Assembly (NCBI GenBank): GCA_035506195.1
Contig: DATJPV010000036.1
Location: forward strand, 16,100-80,099
Length of the DNA stretch: 64,000 nt
Reading direction: 5' to 3'
Source: Patescibacteria group bacterium
Lineage (GTDB): Bacteria > Omnitrophota > Gorgyraeia > Gygaellales > Profunditerraquicolaceae
Shown here piece by piece: positions 43,829-53,133 of the stretch; the stretch's first letter is position 1, and each line of letters starts with the position of its first letter. Made by a program: the position numbers and the translations under genes. Under the pieces are notes generated by a model. It saw only the letters and a program-made list of their open reading frames with translations. It did no database searches and was not told the origin of the DNA.

Positions 43829-44420
43829 CTATCTTATCGGTTCCATCCCGACCGCCTATATTTTTGTCCGGCTCCTCAAGGGGCAGGATATCCGCACGAT
43901 AGGCTCAGGCAATGTCGGGGCGACCAATGCCTTGCGCGTCCTGGGAAAGCCCCTGGGGGTGACGATCCTCATCCTGGACATCCTTAAGGGTTTTGCTGCG
44001 GTGGCCCTGGTGGGCGATTGGGTAGCTGCTCATGGCGCTGCCCTGTCCCCGGAGCCCCTGCGCATCCTTTTGGGTTTAGCCTGCGTCAGCGGCCACAACT
44101 GGACCGTATTCCTGCGTTTTAAGGGCGGCAAGGGCATCGCGACCAGCTTTGGCAGCCTCCTGGGCCTGGCATGCAAGATCCCCGGCCTTTGGCTGGTGTT
44201 GGGGCTGGTGGTACTGGTGTGGCTGGCAGCCTTTTTGGCCAGCAGGATAGTATCCCTGTCTTCGGTCCTGGCCGGCATAAGCCTGCCGGTTTTTGCGGCT
44301 CTCTTGCGGCAGTCGCAGGTCTTGACCGCCGCAAGCCTCGTTTTGGCGCTGTTTATCGTAGTCCGCCACCGCTCGAACCTGAAAAGAATTTTTCAAAAGC
44401 AAGAGCGCCCGCTTTTCTAG
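43797..44420 (+). CDS. plsY: Glycerol-3-phosphate acyltransferase PlsY
   Basis: GSGNVGATNALRVLGK signature. Confidence 0.85.
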   Translation: MPWIILGLCISYLIGSIPTAYIFVRLLKGQDIRTIGSGNVGATNALRVLGKPLGVTILILDILKGFAAVALVGDWVAAHGAALSPEPLRILLGLACVSGHNWTVFLRFKGGKGIATSFGSLLGLACKIPGLWLVLGLVVLVWLAAFLASRIVSLSSVLAGISLPVFAALLRQSQVLTAASLVLALFIVVRHRSNLKRIFQKQERPLF

Positions 44421-44515
44421 ATCTTCCCCAAAAAGCTGTTTTCTCGTCGATAAAAAATCGACCGCGGCCCCCGAGCATCGTGTGGAAAACGCTTTCTTCA
44501 AACGCCGTAAATGGG

Positions 44516-44545
44516 TTGAAAGCAGATAATAACGCATGTTATACT
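44516..44545 (+). promoter_or_regulatory. Putative sigma70 promoter (extended -10) for the third PilZ gene
   Basis: TTGAAA (44516-44521), 18 nt, TGtTATACT (-10 at 44540-44545). Confidence 0.4.
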
Positions 44546-44615
44546 TACGTTGGAATTTCATTTTTTTTGCCCTCTTTTTAAAAAGATTGCAAAAGATCTG
44601 AGATAGGGAGAAGGC

Positions 44616-44933
44616 ATGCTAGAGGACCGCAGGTGTTTTTTCCGTTTCCCCGCAACCGTGCCGTTGCGCTACCAGGATAACGACGGCGGTGTGCAGGGAT
44701 GGGGAGAAACGCACGATATCAGCGCCAAGGGGATCGGTTTTTTCACCGATCGAGAGATGCCGCCTGACACAAGCCTTGATATATGCCTGCAGGTCCCCGA
44801 TAGGGAAGATGGAATCTGCGTAAAAGGCAGTATCGTATGGTCGCGCCTGGTTGCTCCGCAGCGCTACCGGGTCGGCGTAAGCCTGGAAAAAGTGGATTTC
44901 ATCAGCATGTCGCACGTGTTGCGTTTGGCCTAA
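44616..44933 (+). CDS. PilZ-domain protein
   Basis: RRCFFRFPATVPLRYQ...DISAKGIGF PilZ motifs. Confidence 0.7.
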   Translation: MLEDRRCFFRFPATVPLRYQDNDGGVQGWGETHDISAKGIGFFTDREMPPDTSLDICLQVPDREDGICVKGSIVWSRLVAPQRYRVGVSLEKVDFISMSHVLRLA

Positions 44934-45079
44934 TTTTTCTCGAAAAAGCAACGCCTGTAAGTTCCCTGCCAGCCAGGAAGCTAAGGAAGGGATAGCCGGG
45001 TTGCCGAAGGACAGAGGAGGACTTTTAACTTATCGGGCAACCCGGCTTTTTATAAGCTCAGAGTGCAAAGGGGATCATT

Positions 45080-45412
45080 ATGCGAGATTTGGTATTCAAA
45101 AACCTGACTTCCAGCGACCACAAACGCAGGATCGTTGCCAGTTCCGAGGTAGCGGACCGGCAAGGCGTGCGCAGCACTATCCACAGGCATTTTGTGTGCA
45201 TGGTCAAAGAAGTCAAGGATGCCAACATCCCCAAGCCGAACCCGTATTTATATGTGCTCAAACAACGCAATACTAAAGAACAAACGGAAAAGTTTTTTTG
45301 CCGGATAAAAGGAAGCCTTTATGCGGTCAACAAAGGCAAGCTCTTCCTGATTATTTTTACCCACTCCTTAAAGATCTGCCTCAAGCCCGTTCCTCAGGAT
45401 TTAATGGCGTAA
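45080..45412 (+). CDS. Hypothetical small protein in AT-rich spacer (may be non-coding)
   Basis: 110-aa ORF in a low-GC region with a weak ribosome-binding site and no recognisable domain. Confidence 0.25.
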   Translation: MRDLVFKNLTSSDHKRRIVASSEVADRQGVRSTIHRHFVCMVKEVKDANIPKPNPYLYVLKQRNTKEQTEKFFCRIKGSLYAVNKGKLFLIIFTHSLKICLKPVPQDLMA

Positions 45413-45558
45413 AGCCGCCTTTCGGGGGCTCCTCCAAAGAAAGCGTTTTCAGGTTGACAAAAAGCCAAATATCTGTTATACTTCCTTCAGACTTTTAAAA
45501 AGTATATATTACCGGGTGCCCTGATTAGGAGGAAATCAGGACACATACAGAAAATGTA

Positions 45559-45602
45559 TCCCGGATTGACAAAAAAAGGGTCGATCCGGGATTTTGTTTT
45601 TT
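45559..45602 (+). terminator. Rho-independent terminator
   Basis: 12-bp stem TCCCGGATTGAC / GTCGATCCGGGA with a 9-nt loop, followed by TTTTGTTTTTT. Confidence 0.7.
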
Positions 45603-45615
45603 GTATTTAAAGTCT

Positions 45616-45644
45616 TGACAAATAGAAATTTATATACTAAAATA
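45616..45644 (+). promoter_or_regulatory. Near-consensus sigma70 promoter for the surface-structure locus
   Basis: TTGACA (45616-45621), 17 nt, TAAAAT (45639-45644). About 60 nt upstream of the ATG at 45707, which is preceded by AAGGAG. Confidence 0.6.
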
Positions 45645-45706
45645 CTACCGAAACTAGGGAAAGGGTGAGTTGGTAAAACAGGTAATCAGGCGAAAGGAGT
45701 AAGAAG

Positions 45707-46306
45707 ATGGGGAAGTTGAAACTGGCGCTGTGCGCGGCGATGGCATTTGTGCTTGTGACCGGCGGCATGGCGTTTGCAGGGGAAAAGGTGTTGTTTGGAT
45801 TTGAGAAGGATATGGGCGGTTGGGAAATCCCCGACTGGGCAATGGAAAAGGAAGACTACGTAGGCACTAAGATCGAGCTATCGACCGCAGTTTTCAAAGA
45901 GGGAAAGTCTTGCCTTAAGCTCGACACCAAGTTCCCCGGAGGGAAATGGACTGCGGCTTATGTTGAGATCCAGCAATACTTCGATTGGACCGCTTACAGC
46001 GCGGTTGCGGTTGATGTCTATTTGCCGGAAACAGCACCGGTCGGCCTGAAATCAAAAATGATTTTGACCGTCGGCGAATCCTGGGCATGGGTCGAAATGG
46101 CACGCAGCACCGCTTTGGAGCCGGGAAAATGGACGACCATCACCGCTAATATCATGCCGGCTAGCACCGATTTTCGCGCTACGGTTGATGACGCCTTCAG
46201 GAAGGATATCCGCAAGGTCGGCGTCAGGATCGAATCCAATATGAAGCCCGTATATGAAGGGCCGGTGTATATTGACAATTTCAGATTGATTGAAGTAACC
46301 AAATAA
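45707..46306 (+). CDS. Secreted hypothetical protein, beta-sandwich/CBM-like
   Basis: Signal peptide MGKLKLALCAAMAFVLVTGGMAFAG. Aromatic-rich beta pattern (WEIPDW, WTAAYVEIQQYFDW). No catalytic motif. Confidence 0.5.
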   Translation: MGKLKLALCAAMAFVLVTGGMAFAGEKVLFGFEKDMGGWEIPDWAMEKEDYVGTKIELSTAVFKEGKSCLKLDTKFPGGKWTAAYVEIQQYFDWTAYSAVAVDVYLPETAPVGLKSKMILTVGESWAWVEMARSTALEPGKWTTITANIMPASTDFRATVDDAFRKDIRKVGVRIESNMKPVYEGPVYIDNFRLIEVTK

Positions 46307-46317
46307 CGAAGAGGGAG

Positions 46318-46902
46318 GTGAAACACATGATCAAATATGTAAAGATAATGATGTTGATTGGCTTAGGGCTAACGCTTGCGTATGCGCAAGCTTTCGCAGG
46401 GACCTCAACTGCTACAGCTACTGTTACGGCAACCGTGCCTTCAGTAACCACGGTTTCTCTTGCCCGTGATACCGGTTCAGCTACGCGCGGTTCAGCTAGC
46501 ACGATTATCTTCGATAAGCTGGATAGCCAGGACACGCCCGGTGGTGATGCGGGGTTGATGTACGCACCGTATCGTACTACCGAAAACGGCAAGAACTGGC
46601 ATTTCGCCAAGGTTGCGGCTAATGGCTCAACGTTGACATTAGCGCTTACCGTAAGCGGGACCGTAGGAGGCCAGCCGCTGTCGAACCTTTTGAAGGTTTA
46701 TTGCGGCGGTTTCTACCTGACAGGTTCTACGACCTTTATTAGCGGAACCAATTCAGCGGACTGGGAATTTGCCAGCGGTTGGCAGAGGACCTTGACTCAG
46801 GCGTTCATCGGGACAGTGCCGTTTAACTACCAGTTGAACGTTTCTGCCGTTGGTGCCGGTTCTTACTCCGGGTCGGTAACGTTTACCTTGACGACAACGT
46901 AG
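46318..46902 (+). CDS. Secreted fimbrial-subunit-like protein (spore-coat-U / DUF4402-like), putative major subunit
   Basis: Signal peptide ending AFAG. Mature N-terminus has an alternating TSTATATVTATVPSVTTVSL donor-strand-like segment. C-terminal GSYSGSVTFTLTTT strand. Followed by a stem-loop. Confidence 0.5.
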   Translation: MKHMIKYVKIMMLIGLGLTLAYAQAFAGTSTATATVTATVPSVTTVSLARDTGSATRGSASTIIFDKLDSQDTPGGDAGLMYAPYRTTENGKNWHFAKVAANGSTLTLALTVSGTVGGQPLSNLLKVYCGGFYLTGSTTFISGTNSADWEFASGWQRTLTQAFIGTVPFNYQLNVSAVGAGSYSGSVTFTLTTT

Positions 46903-46929
46903 TTATTCCTGCGTTGATTGTATGCATTT

Positions 46930-46966
46930 AATAGCTTGGGGCGGGTTTATCCTGCCCCAAGCTATT
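46930..46966 (+). terminator. Perfect 13-bp-stem hairpin between subunit genes 1 and 2 (no T-tract; attenuator/RNA-stability element)
   Basis: AATAGCTTGGGGC-(11 nt)-GCCCCAAGCTATT, ending 1 nt before the ATG at 46967. Confidence 0.5.
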
Positions 46967-47527
46967 ATGGCATATAAAGAAGGGTCGCTATTGAAGAAAC
47001 TAACATATTTTGCAGGTGCGCTGCTGGTATGTTTCTTGTTATACGCCCAGGCAGAGGCATTGGATTACAAAACTGACGATATCTCCGCCTCGGTGGAAGT
47101 ACTGCCTACCTTTGGTATCTCTCTCGATAATCTCAACCTTTATTTCGGCCTTATTCAGCCAGGCTCCACAAAAATATTAGGCGAGGGCACATTTTTCAAC
47201 CAGATCCACTGCCGTTCTAACTCCGGCCGGCCATGGTTCCTGAAGGCGCAGGTTGTTTCCCTGTCCCTGATGGAAAAACCGTATAAGGTGCCCGCCGGAA
47301 ATCTTAAATGGAAGGTTACGCAATGCACCGGTTCTGCGCAGCCGGCAGGCGGCTACGATTTTCAGTCGCTTACCGAAGAGCCGCTCCTTATGTATGCAAG
47401 TCAGGGAGATGACGACTTTGGCAAAGACGTAGTGCTATCTATGCAATATAGCCTGCAGTCGCCGTCCGATGCGCCGGCAGGCACGTATTCCGGCCAGATC
47501 GTTTTCACCATGGCAGAAAGCCCTTAA
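46967..47527 (+). CDS. Secreted fimbrial-subunit-like paralog 2
   Basis: Start moved to MAYKEG because the upstream part of ORF 46922 is the hairpin. Signal peptide ...YAQAEA. Alternating SASVEVLPTFGISL N-terminal segment. C-terminal AGTYSGQIVFTMAE. Paralogous to subunits 1 and 3 (shared CRS.NG...W.LK block). Confidence 0.5.
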   Translation: MAYKEGSLLKKLTYFAGALLVCFLLYAQAEALDYKTDDISASVEVLPTFGISLDNLNLYFGLIQPGSTKILGEGTFFNQIHCRSNSGRPWFLKAQVVSLSLMEKPYKVPAGNLKWKVTQCTGSAQPAGGYDFQSLTEEPLLMYASQGDDDFGKDVVLSMQYSLQSPSDAPAGTYSGQIVFTMAESP

Positions 47528-47530
47528 AGA

Positions 47531-48013
47531 ATGCTCAAAAAAATCATTATCTGCGCGTATATGTTGGCTTTGCCGGCGTTGGGGTATGCATCGCTGGAAC
47601 TGACTACCGACCACCGTTCGCTTTTCTTCGGGGCGATGCGCCTGGGGGAAGAAAAGGAGCTTGCGGATTTCGGCGGTTATCATAATGAAATTACCTGTCG
47701 TTCCACCAACGGGGCCATCTGGTACCTGAAGGTCAATCTCTTGCAGCCTTTAAGCTCGGGGGCCGACACGATCCCCGCGGAAAATCTTTCCTGGCAACTG
47801 ACTTGGACTAACGGTAACGGCACCAAGCCCGGCGGGGCGTATACCTATAAAAGCTTCAGCCTCATGCCTGACCTGGTTTACATAAGCGGGCCGGGTGAGT
47901 CGGCCGGCAACGGCATTACCTTGCAGTTCAAGTATTCCTTGAAGATCCCCGAAATTCAGCACAGCGGAGTATATAATGCGACTATCCGCTTTACCCTAAC
48001 GGAGATGTTTTGA
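47531..48013 (+). CDS. Secreted fimbrial-subunit-like paralog 3
   Basis: Signal peptide ...ALGYA; ITCRSTNGAIWYLKV block shared with paralog 2; C-terminal SGVYNATIRFTLTE. Confidence 0.5.
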   Translation: MLKKIIICAYMLALPALGYASLELTTDHRSLFFGAMRLGEEKELADFGGYHNEITCRSTNGAIWYLKVNLLQPLSSGADTIPAENLSWQLTWTNGNGTKPGGAYTYKSFSLMPDLVYISGPGESAGNGITLQFKYSLKIPEIQHSGVYNATIRFTLTEMF

Positions 48014-48786
48014 TGACAAAATATTGCCGTGCCCTGACGTGTATCCTATTGTGGTGTGCTGCGCTTATTGCGGAAGCTTACGCGTTCAGCATCGAGCCGG
48101 GCCGGATCGAACTGGCTATCCCCGCGGGCCGGCAGAGAGGCAAGACCGTTACGATAGACAATCGGGATTCGGATGAGTCCCTGCACTTGAAGATATACGC
48201 TACCGACGTGATCTTCCTGCCCGATGGTACGAATGACTTTCCGCAGGCCGGCGCTACTGCCTGGTCTTGCGTAAAATGGGTGCGGGTAACCCCCGATGAG
48301 ATCGATGTCCCCGCAAAAAAGACACAGACCGTACGCGTCAACGTCACGGTCCCGCAAGGGGCCCAGGGCGGCTATTACGGGATGCTTTTCTTTGAATCCG
48401 GCATGCCCAGCCCCGCTAAGGGGCTCAATATCAACTTCCGCGTGGGCGGCCTTGTCGATGTGTCCGTCCCGGGCACCGAACAGTTCAGCGCCAAGGTCGC
48501 GCATATCAGCCTGTCTAGCCCCAAGAAGATCGAGGTCGGGATCTTTAATGAAGGCAATGTGTTGGTCAGGCCCAAGGGCAAAGTGAAGATCATGGATGCC
48601 CGCGGCAAAAGAATAAAACAAATTGATTTTAACCCCGCGGGATGGGGAGTGCTGCCTCGCAGCCTGCGCAAACTATACGTGGACCTGGACAAGCCTTTGA
48701 CGAGCGGGCAGTATACTATCCGGGTCGAGATCAACTACGGAACGAAGTACTTGTTGGTAGGAGAATCTCCGGTGCAGGTGCAATGA
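48010..48786 (+). CDS. Periplasmic PapD-like chaperone candidate (pattern-based)
   Basis: Signal peptide. The N-terminal FSIEPGRIELAIPAGRQRGKTVTIDNRDSDESLHLKIY matches the PapD-family A1/B1 strand pattern. Two beta-rich halves. TGA overlaps the next ATG. Confidence 0.4.
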   Translation: MMTKYCRALTCILLWCAALIAEAYAFSIEPGRIELAIPAGRQRGKTVTIDNRDSDESLHLKIYATDVIFLPDGTNDFPQAGATAWSCVKWVRVTPDEIDVPAKKTQTVRVNVTVPQGAQGGYYGMLFFESGMPSPAKGLNINFRVGGLVDVSVPGTEQFSAKVAHISLSSPKKIEVGIFNEGNVLVRPKGKVKIMDARGKRIKQIDFNPAGWGVLPRSLRKLYVDLDKPLTSGQYTIRVEINYGTKYLLVGESPVQVQ

Positions 48787-51700
48787 TGGGCGGCCAATGG
48801 CCTAAAATAAAAAAAGTAGCGGCATTGGCAGTGGCGGCGGTTTTTCTTGTCAGCCACTGCGGGTTCGCCGGCGTTGTACCCGGCGCAATGGCCGCTGACT
48901 ATTTGTTCGAGGTCGGTAAGCATTTTTATGACCAGGGCCGTTATGCGGATGCGCTGCATGAGTTCCACAAGGCCCTCATGCTTAACCCCGTCCATAAAGA
49001 GGTGCTGCGGTATATCGGCCTGATCACCGGCGCTGCGCAAGAAGTCTACATGGAAAAAGGCGTGGCGGTAGGCGCCGAGGCTCCTGGCGCGCCCAGGCCC
49101 AAAAGAGCAGTCTCTCCGGTAGGAACCCCTTTGATAACGATGCCCGGGCAGGCGCCTGCCGTGGCGCCTGCCGTGCTGCCAAAGCCGCAAAAGTCCCGGG
49201 AACAGTCTCTGGCCGAAGCCTTGAACGCCCAAGAGGCCGCAGTGCACCCAGGGCCGCAGGTTCCGGCTAAACCCGTGGCGCCTGTTGTTGTTCCCCGCGC
49301 TGCCGTTACTCCCGCACCTGCTGTCCCCGCAGCAAAAGAAGAGGCCGCGGAAACAGAAGGCCCCCGCTTGAACCTGTCCGCCATACAGCCTGCAGCCGTC
49401 AAGAAAGCCGGCGAGATCAGCCTTTTCATCAACGGCCAGGAAGTTTCCCTTGAGGAAGCCGTCCTCTTTAAAGACGGCCAGATCCTGGTGCCCCTGAAAG
49501 CAATAGCCCCTAAGTTATACTATAACCTTTTAGACCTCCAGGGCGGAAAATTTTCGCTCATCAACCCGGAAGGCAAAGCCCGCGATATCGCCGCCGTGCT
49601 TCAAGACGGCAAGCCGATGCTCGATGAAGGGCAGATCCGGGAGTATTTTTCTGCCCGTACCCGTTATGACGCCCAAGCCAAGGCCTTTTACATCGATACC
49701 CAGGCAAGCCAGGGCCTGAAATTGTATGTCCTGGAAAGGCCGCCGGAAGAAATACAGAAAGAAGCCCAGCAGCAAAAAGTCATTGCGCAGGCAACCGCCG
49801 TTCCGGAAAAACCCTCTGTTATCCCCGATGCAGCCCGGCCTTCGCTGGATGTCAGAGGCAACCTCAATTACACGTATTTCAAATATCATGTACTTCCGGT
49901 ATATCACGACCTTTCCTCCAGCCTTTACGGCCGGCTTTACGATTACAACCTGGCTTACCGCTCGGAATATAAAGATATAAACGGGCCGGTAAAGAACGAT
50001 TATACGACCATGTCTTTGTCTAAGCCGGGCATATACTACGGATTTTTCGACCAGTCGGCAGACCTGTATCCGCTGCGCCTGCAGTCAAGCGAGTTTACCG
50101 GCATCAAGGTGGTCCGCTCCCGGAATGAACTGACCAATACGACCCTCTGGGGCGGCCAGACCGAGAATACCATTGCCGGCACAAGCGGTTCGGTCAAGTA
50201 CCTCGGCAAGCTCTTTGGGGCAAGCCAGGATTTTTCGCCTATATACTGGTTGCACCTGAAGGGCGGGATGCTCTACACGGATAATACCGCAGACCAGCCT
50301 TCCCAGGTCGGCACCACTTCATACCCTCGCCAGAATTTCGTTACGTATTCCAACATAGCGCTGCAGCTGCCGCAGAGCACTACGCTTACCCTTTCCGGAG
50401 CCCACTGTTATTATTATCCCGATTATGCCCCCGATAGCGTGGCGATCCAGGATTGGGATTGGCGCATCGGCACGAATACGAATAAGCCGCGCTATAGCCT
50501 CGGTTTTGCGTATGAGAGGGTCGGCGAAAATTACGTCTCTATCGGGGACTCCGGCATTTACCAGGATTACCAGGGATGGGACCTTTACGGCGGCTGGAGG
50601 CCCACTGACCACTGGTCCATATTCACCAACGCCTCGCAGTACCATGATAACGTCTCGGATGACCCCCAGTCGGTTACTACCTATGCATCCAATTACGGCC
50701 TGTCTTCCGCTTACCGCATTACCGGGGACCAGACCGTTAACCTTATGTACAACCATTTTGTTTCGAATCCCGAAGGTCCGGCAGCCGGCCCCAGCGGCGT
50801 CAGCAACGTCTACCGGATAGACTATTTCCTGCCGCTTTTTTATCAGGTCCGCGGCTCGCTGAACTATGCGCTTACTCACTCCGATTCCGGCGGCTCCTTC
50901 GATTACGACGCCCCCAGCATAGGCGGGACCTTGTTCAGGTCGTTTGGCCAGGGCTCCAGCTGGTACCTGAGCCAGCAGGCAACCAATACCCTTTACCGGA
51001 ACCGGCCGGATAGCCACGACTACACCACGACCTTTAACCTGTATTATGCCATCAATCCGCTTTTGGCCGCGTATTTCAACGCCTCCTATGTCAGGAATGA
51101 CACCGATGGGGCGCACTCCACGAATCAGCTCTCCGGTGCTTTAGGGACCAGGTATAGCCTGTTCCCGGATACCACGTTAAGCTTCGAGTACAGCATCAAT
51201 TCGTATGACTTGCGCACGGAAAGAGACCGCTGGCCGAAAAGCTGGTCCATGCTTTTCTACGTAGCGCAAGGGTTCCAGATCAAGACCTCCCCGAATTTCG
51301 GTACGCTTGAAGGCCGGGTTTTCCAGGACCTCAACGATAACGGCAGGTGGGATTCCGGCGAACCCGGGGTGGAGGGAGCGCTTGTATACCTGGACGACAG
51401 GAGAGAGGCGACTACCGATGCGCGCGGGTATTTCAAGATCAACTATATGAATCCGATCCCGCAAAAAGTGTACCTGGACCTGGCGACGGTACCGCCGGAA
51501 TGGATGACCGCCCAGACGGAACAGTGGGTCCAGGTCAAGCCCAGGCGGGCATCGACGGTCGTCTTTGCCTTGCGCAAGGCCGCCGGCATCAAAGGGCGCG
51601 TCTTTGTCGACCAGAACGGCGACGGCATCTTCCAGGAAACGGAAGAGCCGCTGGAAAGCGTGGTCTTAAAACTCTCCCCGGGCGATCATATCACCCAGAC

Positions 51701-51881
51701 CAACGCCGACGGAGAGTTCAAGTTCGAATCCCTGGCGCCGGGGCACTATGCCCTGTCGATCTCCCCGGACGGGATCCCGACGGGTTATGAACTTACCTCC
51801 AAATCGGAAATAAAAATGGACCTGGCCGCAGGGGCACAGGTCCATGATACCAACTTTGCTCTCAAGCTTTCTACCCGCTAA
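48783..51881 (+). CDS. Large outer-membrane protein: TPR-like N-term, Pro/Ala linker, Cu-amine-oxidase-N1-like domain, beta-barrel-like region, two C-terminal CnaB/SdrD-B-like beta-sandwich domains (usher-like domain order)
   Basis: Signal peptide MMGGQWPKIKKVAALAVAAVFLVSHCGFAG. A TPR-like segment (GRYADALHEFHKALMLNP), ISLFINGQEVSLEEAVLFKDGQILVPLKAIAP, about 530 aa rich in alternating Y/S/T/N/G, then two copies of GRVF.D.N.NG..D..E.G. The ORF track also starts in-frame at 48642. Confidence 0.5.
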   Translation: MMGGQWPKIKKVAALAVAAVFLVSHCGFAGVVPGAMAADYLFEVGKHFYDQGRYADALHEFHKALMLNPVHKEVLRYIGLITGAAQEVYMEKGVAVGAEAPGAPRPKRAVSPVGTPLITMPGQAPAVAPAVLPKPQKSREQSLAEALNAQEAAVHPGPQVPAKPVAPVVVPRAAVTPAPAVPAAKEEAAETEGPRLNLSAIQPAAVKKAGEISLFINGQEVSLEEAVLFKDGQILVPLKAIAPKLYYNLLDLQGGKFSLINPEGKARDIAAVLQDGKPMLDEGQIREYFSARTRYDAQAKAFYIDTQASQGLKLYVLERPPEEIQKEAQQQKVIAQATAVPEKPSVIPDAARPSLDVRGNLNYTYFKYHVLPVYHDLSSSLYGRLYDYNLAYRSEYKDINGPVKNDYTTMSLSKPGIYYGFFDQSADLYPLRLQSSEFTGIKVVRSRNELTNTTLWGGQTENTIAGTSGSVKYLGKLFGASQDFSPIYWLHLKGGMLYTDNTADQPSQVGTTSYPRQNFVTYSNIALQLPQSTTLTLSGAHCYYYPDYAPDSVAIQDWDWRIGTNTNKPRYSLGFAYERVGENYVSIGDSGIYQDYQGWDLYGGWRPTDHWSIFTNASQYHDNVSDDPQSVTTYASNYGLSSAYRITGDQTVNLMYNHFVSNPEGPAAGPSGVSNVYRIDYFLPLFYQVRGSLNYALTHSDSGGSFDYDAPSIGGTLFRSFGQGSSWYLSQQATNTLYRNRPDSHDYTTTFNLYYAINPLLAAYFNASYVRNDTDGAHSTNQLSGALGTRYSLFPDTTLSFEYSINSYDLRTERDRWPKSWSMLFYVAQGFQIKTSPNFGTLEGRVFQDLNDNGRWDSGEPGVEGALVYLDDRREATTDARGYFKINYMNPIPQKVYLDLATVPPEWMTAQTEQWVQVKPRRASTVVFALRKAAGIKGRVFVDQNGDGIFQETEEPLESVVLKLSPGDHITQTNADGEFKFESLAPGHYALSISPDGIPTGYELTSKSEIKMDLAAGAQVHDTNFALKLSTR

Positions 51882-51884
51882 CCT

Positions 51885-52106
51885 CTAGTTCTTCGCATAC
51901 GCGACCTGCGTATCCTCCTGTTGGTTCTGTTGCTCGGTTTTTTCCTCCTGCACAATCTGGGTTTGCGTTGCCGTCTCCCGCGCAGGGATGATGATGATGA
52001 CGGTGGCAGTAGCGCTTGCCTGTCCGGCATACACACAGTGGACCGGGATGCACAAAGATGCGAGCGTTGCGAATACGAGTATAAAGACTGTCAGTGTCTT
52101 TTTCAT
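51885..52106 (-). CDS. Small secreted peptide (73 aa) with donor-strand-like ATATVIIII motif and Gln/Glu/Thr-rich tail
   Basis: Strong ribosome-binding site AAGGAGG. Signal peptide ending VYAG. Mature N-terminus QASATATVIIIIPA resembles subunit 1 (TSTATATVTATV). Convergent with the outer-membrane-protein gene. Confidence 0.55.
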   Translation of the reverse strand: MKKTLTVFILVFATLASLCIPVHCVYAGQASATATVIIIIPARETATQTQIVQEEKTEQQNQQEDTQVAYAKN

Positions 52107-52207
52107 CTGTTGCCTCCTTTGAAAGTTTACGCCTTCAGGCCGTAAACTTTCAGGCGCTGGCGAAAGTCGGACGCCCGCCGGGTGTGGGCGTCCGGCTTAC
52201 AACCAGT

Positions 52208-52471
52208 TCACCTTCCGTGGCCGGTGGTGGTACGTTGTCCCAAAACCTCCAGGACCCGACTTTCAAAATCCCTTTCAGACTTTATATTTTCTCCGGTGAT
52301 CCCCAGGTCTTTGACGAAATCGATCACCCAGGCGATCAATTTTGCCCGGGAGACCTTCAGGCCGGTAGAAAAGAGGGCGTCTTTTCCCATCTTGTCCAGG
52401 AAATCCACTTCTTCCCGGTTCAGGAAGGTCACAACGCGCTGATTTTTTTCTTCGGCAAGCACTGCGTCCAT
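52208..52471 (-). CDS. Small cytoplasmic protein, possible ribbon-helix-helix (CopG/Arc-like) regulator
   Basis: GGAG ribosome-binding site. The QRVVTFLNREEVDFLDKMGKD segment fits an RHH beta-strand plus helix. Preferred over the overlapping + ORF 52094..52534. Confidence 0.45.
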   Translation of the reverse strand: MDAVLAEEKNQRVVTFLNREEVDFLDKMGKDALFSTGLKVSRAKLIAWVIDFVKDLGITGENIKSERDFESRVLEVLGQRTTTGHGR

Positions 52472-52726
52472 TTGAATCTCCTATATAATGAAAACGGCCC
52501 CGTTACATTTCTGGGGCCGCATAAAAAACCCTAAAGAGGTCTTTAGGGTTTTTCTCCTCTTTGGCAGCTCAGCCTCCCGCTTGCGCGGGACTGTAGCTTT
52601 GCGCCCCAGCATTACTGCTAGTTAGCCTTTATCAGTAGGTCTTCCTAATTGTCAATTCAAGTATAGCACATTGTGGTAAGATTTCAAGGTTGCCAAAAGA
52701 TTTTTTTTACATTTTACAAATTGCGC

Positions 52727-52781
52727 AAAAAACCCAGACCGTTTCTGGTTTTTTTAAAAACCAGAAACGGTCTGGGTTTTT
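52727..52781. repeat. Perfect 55-bp palindrome = two back-to-back hairpin+T-tract units (bidirectional terminator-like)
   Basis: AAAAAACCCAGACCGTTTCTGGTTTTTTT | AAAAACCAGAAACGGTCTGGGTTTTT; each half contains a CCAGA-CCGTT-TCTGG hairpin. Confidence 0.7.
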
Positions 52782-52785
52782 GGGG

Positions 52786-52814
52786 TTGACTTTTTGCGGA
52801 AAGGGTGTTATGAT
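52786..52814 (+). promoter_or_regulatory. Putative sigma70 promoter (extended -10) for gatCAB
   Basis: TTGACT (52786-52791), 17 nt, TGtTATGAT (-10 at 52809-52814). AAGGAG ribosome-binding site before the gatC ATG. Confidence 0.55.
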
Positions 52815-52845
52815 TAGCTTAACTTATTGGCAGTAAAGGAGTAAA

Positions 52846-53133
52846 ATGGCGATCACCAAACAGAGCATCGAGTATGTTGCGCACCTTTCGCGTATCGATT
52901 TGAGCCCCGAAGAGCTGGAAAAGTTTTCCGGGCAGCTGGCGCAGATCGTCGCTTTTATCGACAAGTTAAAACAACTGGACGTGGAACACGTAAGCCCCAC
53001 GAGTCATATCCTGCCTATACAGAACGTGTTGAGACAGGATGTTCCCGGTCAATCCCTGCCCGTCGCGCAGGTCCTTGCGGACGCACCGAAACAGCAAGAT
53101 AACCTATTCGCCGTCCCCAAGATCATCGACTAA
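52846..53133 (+). CDS. gatC: Glutamyl/aspartyl-tRNA amidotransferase subunit C
   Basis: [34 protein letters not shown] GatC signature. Confidence 0.9.

Follow-up and report, generated by a model that had tools for sequence, protein, structure and literature searches.

The window analysed here, a stretch of 64,000 nucleotides (nt) from contig DATJPV010000036.1 (assembly GCA_035506195.1), contains a cluster of six genes that looks like a single operon and that encodes, among others, three proteins referred to below as subunits 1, 2 and 3. The spacer between the genes of subunit 1 and subunit 2 carries a hairpin of 17 bp which is stable far beyond chance, the pairing of which is kept in related loci and which is not followed by a U-tract. 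In the reading that we favour, and to which we assign a probability of about 0.5, this hairpin protects the sense transcript from its 3' side, as an intercistronic stem-loop that gives rise to differential mRNA decay.

Structure and Stability of the Hairpin

An earlier note on this DNA, made from the letters alone, had described a perfect 13-bp stem at positions 46930-46966 of the plus strand (AATAGCTTGGGGC-GGGTTTATCCT-GCCCCAAGCTATT, the 11-nt spacer being GGGTTTATCCT), and this description is accurate to the letter, as the arms 46930-46942 and 46954-46966 pair at 13 of 13 positions. The full helix is longer than the note gave, with positions 46929-46945 pairing with 46951-46967 to form 17 bp, including one G-U pair, around the loop TTTAT. 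Two further helices accompany it, so that the structured region comprises:

46929..46967, plus strand: main hairpin, 17-bp stem with a 5-nt loop, without a 3' U-tract
46918-46925 with 46970-46977 (span 46918..46977), plus strand: outer helix enclosing the main hairpin
46895..46916, plus strand: small 8-bp hairpin covering the TAG stop codon of subunit 1

The main stem and the outer helix stack to 25 bp in the window. The main hairpin starts 27 nt past the TAG stop codon of subunit 1, a distance that would place it clear of the footprint of a terminating ribosome. Folding of the 45-nt segment yielded a minimum free energy (MFE) of -31.5 kcal/mol (z = -7.2), while dinucleotide shuffles of the same segment reached -11.5 +/- 2.8 kcal/mol and none of 200 was as good; for the whole 106-nt region the MFE is -50.1 kcal/mol (z = -7.9). 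Among the 42,638 folds obtained from all 45-nt segments on both strands of the 64 kb, the main hairpin ranks second, the first rank being held by the probable bidirectional terminator at 52728-52781. The fold is better by 4.5 kcal/mol on the plus strand than on the minus strand (-31.5 vs -27.0 kcal/mol) because several pairs are G-U, and this asymmetry points to a sense RNA rather than to a DNA palindrome. The arm sequence is present in a single copy, with no extra copies in the 64-kb window, and an Rfam scan of positions 44000-53000 at an expectation value (E) of at most 1 returned no match overlapping 46890-46990.

The missing U-tract, already remarked upon in the earlier note, was confirmed. 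The bases after the hairpin are ATGGCATATAAAGAAGGG without a T-run; read 3' of the hairpin, the sequence is AUGGCAUAUAAAG in the window and (A/G)UGGCAUAU or AUGGCCUCU in the four orthologous loci described below, and no T-run follows the hairpin in any of these five close loci, where the next bases are (A/G)TGGCATAT... A terminator scan of the window did not pick up the site. Intrinsic terminators are defined by a GC-rich hairpin and a U-rich tract of 7-9 nt directly 3' of it; at this position the GC-rich hairpin is present (17 bp, -31.5 kcal/mol) and the U-tract is absent, which excludes a canonical intrinsic (Rho-independent) terminator. The likeness to such a terminator consists in a GC-rich hairpin soon after a stop codon, whereas the differences are the lack of a U-tract and the position of the next gene, which begins 24 nt downstream on the same strand. 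By contrast, four terminator-like sites combining a hairpin with a T-tract are located less than 8 kb away (45033-45052, 45558-45603, 52524-52553 and 52728-52781), and the T-runs at the terminator-like sites of the window are T5-T7.

Conservation and Covariation of the Structure

Subunit 1 has only 17 relatives in a large protein collection. The spacer alignment consisted of the window and four metagenome loci, L001, L017, L019 and L020, the subunit 1 proteins of which are 88-67% identical; left out of the comparison were P0014 and one P0006 place, for which there was no DNA, and L018, which ends inside the left arm. All four loci have this hairpin at the equivalent position. In the main helix 100% of the cells are paired across the five sequences, and the changes that have occurred comprise two compensatory double changes and three one-sided changes that preserve the pair. 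While both arms of L001 and L017 are identical to those of the window and the loop differs, the three innermost pairs G-U, G-C and G-C have become A-U, G-U and G-C in L019, and L020 has C-G in place of a U-A pair in the middle of the 13-bp stem and A-U in place of an inner G-C pair, both by compensatory change. If the 3' partner is slid by one to three columns, the pairing of the whole three-helix structure falls to 33-47%. Variable columns are rare in the stem (5 of 32, all of them pair-preserving) compared with the other ungapped intergenic columns (28 of 51; Fisher p = 4.7e-4) and with the loop (4 of 5; p = 0.008). The outer helix is paired at 90% over the five loci, and together with the main helix it makes up a near-continuous duplex of ~28-31 bp in L019 and L020. 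The small hairpin at 46895-46916 is paired at 92.5% over the five loci with one double change, evidence that is weaker because its left arm is coding sequence. Taken as a whole, the alignment supports the view that the hairpin is an RNA-level element maintained by selection.

More distant loci were folded by taking the best free energy of any 50-nt segment and comparing it with 40 mononucleotide shuffles each. Positions in the following lines are counted from the stop codon of subunit 1:

L009, +19: best free energy -34.5 kcal/mol, 0 of 40 shuffles as good
L013, +21: best free energy -37.4 kcal/mol, 0 of 40 shuffles as good
L003, +22: best free energy -21.6 kcal/mol, 2 of 40 shuffles as good
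L010, +32: best free energy -20.4 kcal/mol, 0 of 40 shuffles as good
L005, about +59: best free energy -16.2 kcal/mol, 0 of 40 shuffles as good

The hairpins of these distant loci are unrelated in sequence to that of the window, and no clear T-run follows those of L003, L009, L010 and L013. Strong hairpins thus recur behind the 3' end of the subunit 1 gene with no constraint on their sequence, though not in every locus. A position that is conserved with a sequence that is unconstrained fits a purely structural role.

Coding Status of the Spacer and Start Codons

An open reading frame (ORF) starting at ATG 46922 is open through the hairpin in the window. The earlier note had judged this start to be wrong, and the frames and stop codons of the relatives bear it out: L001 and L017 have an in-frame TGA directly upstream of the hairpin and no start codon before its 3' end, and in L020 the hairpin lies in another frame (offset 2) relative to subunit 2, with the pairing kept and a peptide that would be unrelated. 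On this evidence the coding reading from 46922 was rejected and the hairpin is non-coding. The replacement that the note had proposed, ATG 46967, fared less well, as it takes in the terminal pair of the stem together with two further bases and is not conserved as a start, the GTG found there in L020 being out of frame with subunit 2. It was rejected in favour of TTG 46991. At the aligned N-terminus of subunit 2, TTG is the only start codon found in L005 (1403) and L011 (3712), and the subunit 2 proteins of the relatives all begin M-(K/R/Q)-(K/N) at the equivalent of this position, which makes TTG 46991, conserved across the family, the more likely start. It is preceded by the following element:

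46976..46984, plus strand: purine-rich Shine-Dalgarno sequence of subunit 2, AAAGAAGGG, 6 nt upstream of the TTG

This Shine-Dalgarno sequence is unpaired in the MFE fold save for 46976-46977, which belong to the outer helix. The conserved TTG suggests that the translation initiation of subunit 2 is deliberately low. For subunit 1 the available start calls were GTG 46318 (the longest ORF), ATG 46327 and ATG 46348, the last being implied by the 184-aa NCBI protein P0001. All 17 homologues align from ATG 46327 and the Shine-Dalgarno spacing agrees with it, while GTG 46318 falls within the Shine-Dalgarno sequence GGAGGTG itself; subunit 1 most probably starts at ATG 46327. In all, three start-codon calls were corrected.

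A Proposed Role of the Hairpin as a Protective Stem-Loop

Two characteristics of a protective stem-loop are found at this site: a spacer within the operon forms a stable stem-loop behind the upstream gene and, as judged by distance, beyond the ribosome footprint, and orthologous operons have kept this structure. A third, a processed or stable RNA 3' end at the hairpin with an upstream segment that is more abundant or longer-lived, would be expected from the model. RNA polymerase would read through the hairpin as there is no U-tract. Decay would be triggered by an endonucleolytic cleavage downstream of the hairpin or by 3'-to-5' exonucleolytic attack on the polycistronic RNA, and the 17-bp GC-centred hairpin together with the outer helix would block the exonucleases; the upstream segment with subunit 1 would then outlive the segment for the minor subunits and assembly proteins. 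At the level of translation, the structured gap of 88 nt would break the coupling of subunit 2 to subunit 1, and subunit 2 has a weak TTG as start whereas subunit 1 has an ATG and the strong Shine-Dalgarno sequence GGAGGTG. Hairpin, gap and start codons together may lead to more subunit 1 than downstream products.

Mechanisms of this kind have been described in other bacteria. The malE-malF spacer of Escherichia coli contains a protective 3' structure, differential decay within operons is widespread, and the papA mRNA has been described as protected by a 3' structure (PMC5927463). In the cip-cel operon of Clostridium cellulolyticum, selective RNA processing and stabilisation take place and stem-loops set the stoichiometry of the cellulosome subunits; 28 of 33 stem-loops at processed 3' ends have no U-run, and the more or less stable the hairpin, as measured by its free energy, the more or less the transcripts of the genes on its two sides differed in ratio, the two quantities being correlated (PMC4423207). 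The hairpin between cssB and cssC of the CS6 fimbriae of enterotoxigenic Escherichia coli is needed for normal fimbrial protein output (PMC8923064). By analogy, the hairpin in the window may act through differential stability or through partial termination, as the earlier note had supposed.

Several points weigh against the protective reading. Co-transcription, processing, the blocking of exonucleases and the resulting stoichiometry are all steps that we infer, and subunit 1 is a candidate for the major subunit. The covariation comes from five sequences, with double changes essentially in one lineage (L020), and 21 of 500 shuffles matched the observed covariation score. Among the close relatives the stem sequence is conserved beyond what the structure alone needs, and a sequence-specific recognition of the stem may be involved. 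In L002, L004, L007/L008 and L015, corresponding to ~4 of ~11 lineages, no hairpin better than shuffles was found, so that the hairpin is not obligatory for this type of operon. Finally, the hairpin is located 3' of two genes, for a carbohydrate-binding-module (CBM)-like protein and for subunit 1, and not of subunit 1 alone.

Alternative Explanations

The hairpin could be a partial attenuator at which some polymerases pause or terminate without a U-tract, possibly with the help of NusA, NusG or Rho, and the downstream genes would then be reached by fewer transcripts. Its great strength, its GC-rich centre and its position directly after a gene would suit this function; a terminator-type structure 3' of the major pilin gene is part of the classical description of pap, and partial T-runs do follow the hairpins of L005 and L013. 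However, the five close loci all lack a T-run, the window has sites of the hairpin-plus-T-tract type, and no promoter of their own was detected for the downstream chaperone-like and usher-position genes. Moreover, neither the E. coli nor the mycobacterial RNA polymerase terminated in vitro at hairpins that lacked a U-tract (PMC3993855). We regard partial attenuation as unlikely.

Another possibility, quite improbable in our judgement, is that the long duplex is cut by an enzyme of the RNase III type, which would separate the subunit 1 mRNA, with the half-structures stabilising the product or products. A duplex of ~28-31 bp is in the size range of RNase III substrates, and such a length is reached by the stacked helices in L019 and L020 (25 bp in the window), the outer helix being kept over the five loci at 90% pairing. 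Yet the outer helix is weak or absent in L017 and has broken pairs in several sequences, and cleavage of this kind is compatible with a protective hairpin rather than exclusive of it.

The structure might instead tune translation, uncoupling subunit 2 and setting an initiation that is low or dependent on a standby site. From its end it is 9-23 nt to the Shine-Dalgarno sequence and the TTG, and the Shine-Dalgarno sequence (46976-46984) directly adjoins the 3' arm of the outer helix (46970-46977). The family has kept TTG as the start, and whereas all genes further downstream are tightly coupled, subunit 2 is set off by the gap of 88 nt. Nevertheless, Shine-Dalgarno sequence and start codon are unpaired in both the MFE and the centroid structure, and the hairpins of the distant loci lie 50-150 nt from the start of subunit 2 and near the stop codon of subunit 1, so that the conserved spatial relation is to the upstream gene. 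Tuning of translation is likewise hardly probable.

Two further readings involve a regulatory RNA. In the broader one, the hairpin would be a processing and stability determinant of an undescribed cyclic di-GMP (c-di-GMP)-associated pilus-like system from an uncultured lineage, made up of three beta-sandwich subunits, a PapD/WxLIP-like chaperone and a non-usher 1032-aa partner, and would in addition be released as a discrete, stable RNA like FimR2 with a regulatory role; this combination appears very unlikely. In the narrower one, to which we give a slim chance, a stable small RNA resembling FimR2 would be processed from the spacer and have its targets elsewhere. In E. coli K-12 a small RNA of 35 nt, FimR2, is annotated in the equivalent fimA-fimI spacer (NC_000913 4543674-4543708; L021 775-809) and is made by RNase E from the fim operon transcript (PMC9723502), and the stem sequence of the close relatives is conserved beyond the needs of pairing. 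Against it, the stem is perfectly paired over 17 bp and the 5-nt loop varies, so that no conserved single-stranded stretch is available as a seed; the sequences of the distant relatives are unrelated, Rfam gave no match, and the E. coli spacer folds no better than its shuffles (z = 0.3) and is structurally unlike the one studied here.

Largely refuted, finally, are a DNA-level element, be it the operator of a dimeric regulator or a palindrome resembling repetitive extragenic palindromic (REP) sequences or miniature inverted-repeat transposable elements (MITEs), and coding sequence from 46922: a perfect 13-bp inverted repeat would suit a dimeric DNA-binding protein and the ORF is open in the window, but the G-U pairs favour the plus-strand RNA fold, both half-sites changed together in L020, and the relatives keep the pairing and not the peptide, with TGA upstream in L001 and L017 and a different frame in L020. 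Dispersed copies, as expected of REP or MITE sequences, were not found, with one copy in 64 kb and one per related locus, always at the orthologous site. The G-U asymmetry, the lone copy and the joint change of both arms led to the rejection of operator and mobile palindrome. A degenerate pattern of the hairpin had no exact match in 185,579 representative genomes, and a search of representative genomes with subunit 2 gave no relatives.

The Operon and Its Proteins

The protective reading presupposes that the genes on both sides of the hairpin are transcribed together. The elements of the cluster, all on the plus strand, are:

45615..45643, plus strand: promoter-like site TTGACA-17-TAAAAT, a consensus match only
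45707..46306, plus strand: first gene, 199-aa secreted protein with a galactose-binding/CBM-like domain; 20-nt gap to subunit 1
46327..46902, plus strand: subunit 1, 191 aa, followed by the 88-nt structured spacer
46991..47527, plus strand: subunit 2, 178 aa (MKKLTYF...), TTG start; 3-nt gap to subunit 3
47531..48013, plus strand: subunit 3, 160 aa; 4-nt overlap with the 258-aa gene
48010..48786, plus strand: 258-aa chaperone-like protein with two immunoglobulin (Ig)-like domains; 4-nt overlap with each neighbour
48783..51881, plus strand: last gene, 1032-aa protein with N-terminal TPR and C-terminal SdrD_B/CarboxypepD_reg domains

The promoter-like site, probably the start of the operon, is located just downstream of a terminator-like hairpin with a T-tract (45558-45592, T-run to 45603). 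The hairpin occupies the only sizeable intergenic gap, as further downstream neighbouring genes are separated by 3 nt or have 4 nt in common. In every locus that extends far enough, subunit 1 is separated from subunit 2 by 56-253 nt, and subunit 3, the chaperone-like protein and the large protein follow in this order; the 1032-aa gene is conserved in L001-L004, and the gene of the 199-aa protein (Pfam PF21253, 1.4e-7; CBM27, 7e-5) is also found upstream of subunit 1 in L001.

The earlier note had taken the cluster for a fimbrial operon. This is supported in part, by a predicted fold of the kind found in chaperone-usher chaperones, and is not supported at the level of families, as Pfam and NCBIfam have no family for subunits 1, 2 and 3 and no pilin, chaperone (PapD) or usher family of these databases matches any protein of the cluster. 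Subunit 1 carries a signal peptide, the N-terminal stretch TATATVTATV and, at the C-terminus, the motif GSYSGSVTFTLTTT; it is a predicted beta-sandwich whose best matches are weak and go to donor-strand fibre subunits. Subunits 2 and 3 are paralogues with ~32% identity (tblastn), and subunit 1 shares with them only the C-terminal motif G-x-Y-S-G-x-[VI]-x-F-T. The 258-aa protein has in Pfam only weak Ig-like matches below threshold. Its AlphaFold2 model (AF2; predicted local distance difference test score, pLDDT, 91.5) has as best Foldseek match the WxL-interacting protein WxLIP of the Gram-positive Enterococcus (9i1y, 1e-13), with CfaA, CsuC, FimC, Caf1M and FaeE at 1e-12 to 1e-8, and the Joint Genome Institute (JGI) gives one of the homologues the name 'P pilus assembly chaperone PapD'. 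The 1032-aa protein matches only TPR, SdrD_B and CarboxypepD_reg in Pfam, not Usher, has no NCBIfam match and gave TPR matches only in a PDB sequence search; by position it is a candidate for an usher-like component. PDB sequence searches with the proteins of the cluster returned noise or TPR matches only. A fimbria-like operon is plausible from predicted fold and layout; the fimbrial frame is not established, and a recognisable usher, one of the defining components, was not found.

Several observations were made on the surroundings. A c-di-GMP-I-GGC riboswitch (RF03167; 58.1 bits, gathering score 59, E = 5.7e-12) is located at 52524-52636 on the minus strand, is followed by an expression platform consisting of a hairpin and a T-tract (52553-52524), and lies upstream of an 87-aa gene (52471-52208) and the gene of a 73-aa secreted peptide (52106-51885), both on the minus strand. 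These two genes flank the gene cluster in L001 and L002 as well. After its signal peptide the 73-aa peptide (51885-52106, minus strand) carries SATATVIIIIP, which resembles TATATVTATVP at the mature N-terminus of subunit 1; that it serves as a donor-strand-like cap or anchor peptide is pure speculation. Between the 87-aa and 73-aa genes there are two more intercistronic hairpins without long U-tracts (52120-52198, minus strand), and the one at 52164-52198, with -29.4 kcal/mol on the plus strand, takes fourth place when the 45-nt folds are ranked by stability. It may be usual in this organism for a first gene to be followed by a structured spacer. The most stable structure in the window, at 52728-52781, is a perfect inverted repeat of 26 nt that has a T-run on either strand, and it is probably a bidirectional terminator between the riboswitch-controlled genes and gatC. 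A weak second match to the RF03167 family (44939-45052, plus strand; 19.7 bits, E = 0.6), behind which come a hairpin of 12 bp and the run TTTTT (44994-45052), is placed between a PilZ-domain gene (44616-44933) and a conserved ORF of 110 aa (45080-45412) without a match to any family.

The DNA comes from a metagenome-assembled genome that bears the label 'Patescibacteria group bacterium', and the window encodes ThiC, 3-dehydroquinate synthase, phosphofructokinase, proteins of the GAF/HD-GYP type and PilZ proteins besides c-di-GMP riboswitches. Such a set is unusual for the reduced genomes of the candidate phyla radiation, so the label 'Patescibacteria' may be loose.

Significance and Comparison With Known Systems

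If the protective reading is true, the hairpin marks subunit 1 as the product that is needed in excess, likely the fibre-forming subunit, and since the gene cluster has no Pfam or NCBIfam annotation, it provides a useful handle on what the system builds. It would also be another operon whose stoichiometry is set by an intercistronic RNA structure, outside the cultured model bacteria. As the mechanism is textbook knowledge, the general significance is modest; what is notable about the evidence is the unusually clean compensatory changes and the recurrence, in distant relatives, of unrelated hairpins at this site. Of hairpin and host operon, the operon is the more unusual, being a small unannotated family with a chaperone-like protein, no recognisable usher, a PilZ gene upstream and, beside it on the other strand, a near-threshold c-di-GMP-I riboswitch that drives two small conserved genes.

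Similar to the malE-malF and cip-cel elements, the hairpin is a stable intergenic stem-loop without a U-tract that lies within an operon, where the upstream gene has its 3' end; the genes downstream are read in the same direction, orthologous operons have kept the structure, and the flanking genes encode parts of a multi-subunit assembly. Unlike these elements it is known from sequence and folding alone; moreover, the malE-malF element is a multi-copy REP repeat whereas this hairpin is single-copy, and with -31.5 kcal/mol it is markedly more stable than the average of ~-19 kcal/mol for the Clostridium set. With the structures of papA, cssB-cssC and fimA-fimI it shares the location after a structural subunit gene and before the genes of minor subunits or assembly proteins, and with those of fimbrial operons the proposed purpose, an excess of the structural subunit. 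In contrast to chaperone-usher operons, the proteins encoded here are outside the Pfam and NCBIfam pilin, chaperone and usher families, and only the chaperone-like protein matches them, through its predicted fold. There is no sequence similarity to the E. coli examples. The spacer between fimA and fimI of E. coli, with a weak hairpin of -16 kcal/mol (z = 0.3), was rejected as a structural analogue, as it shares the position and has no comparable hairpin. In function, the hairpin is closest to the intercistronic stabilisers and to the structures that follow fimbrial major-subunit genes, and it belongs to no sequence-defined family; its proposed mechanism is a familiar one.

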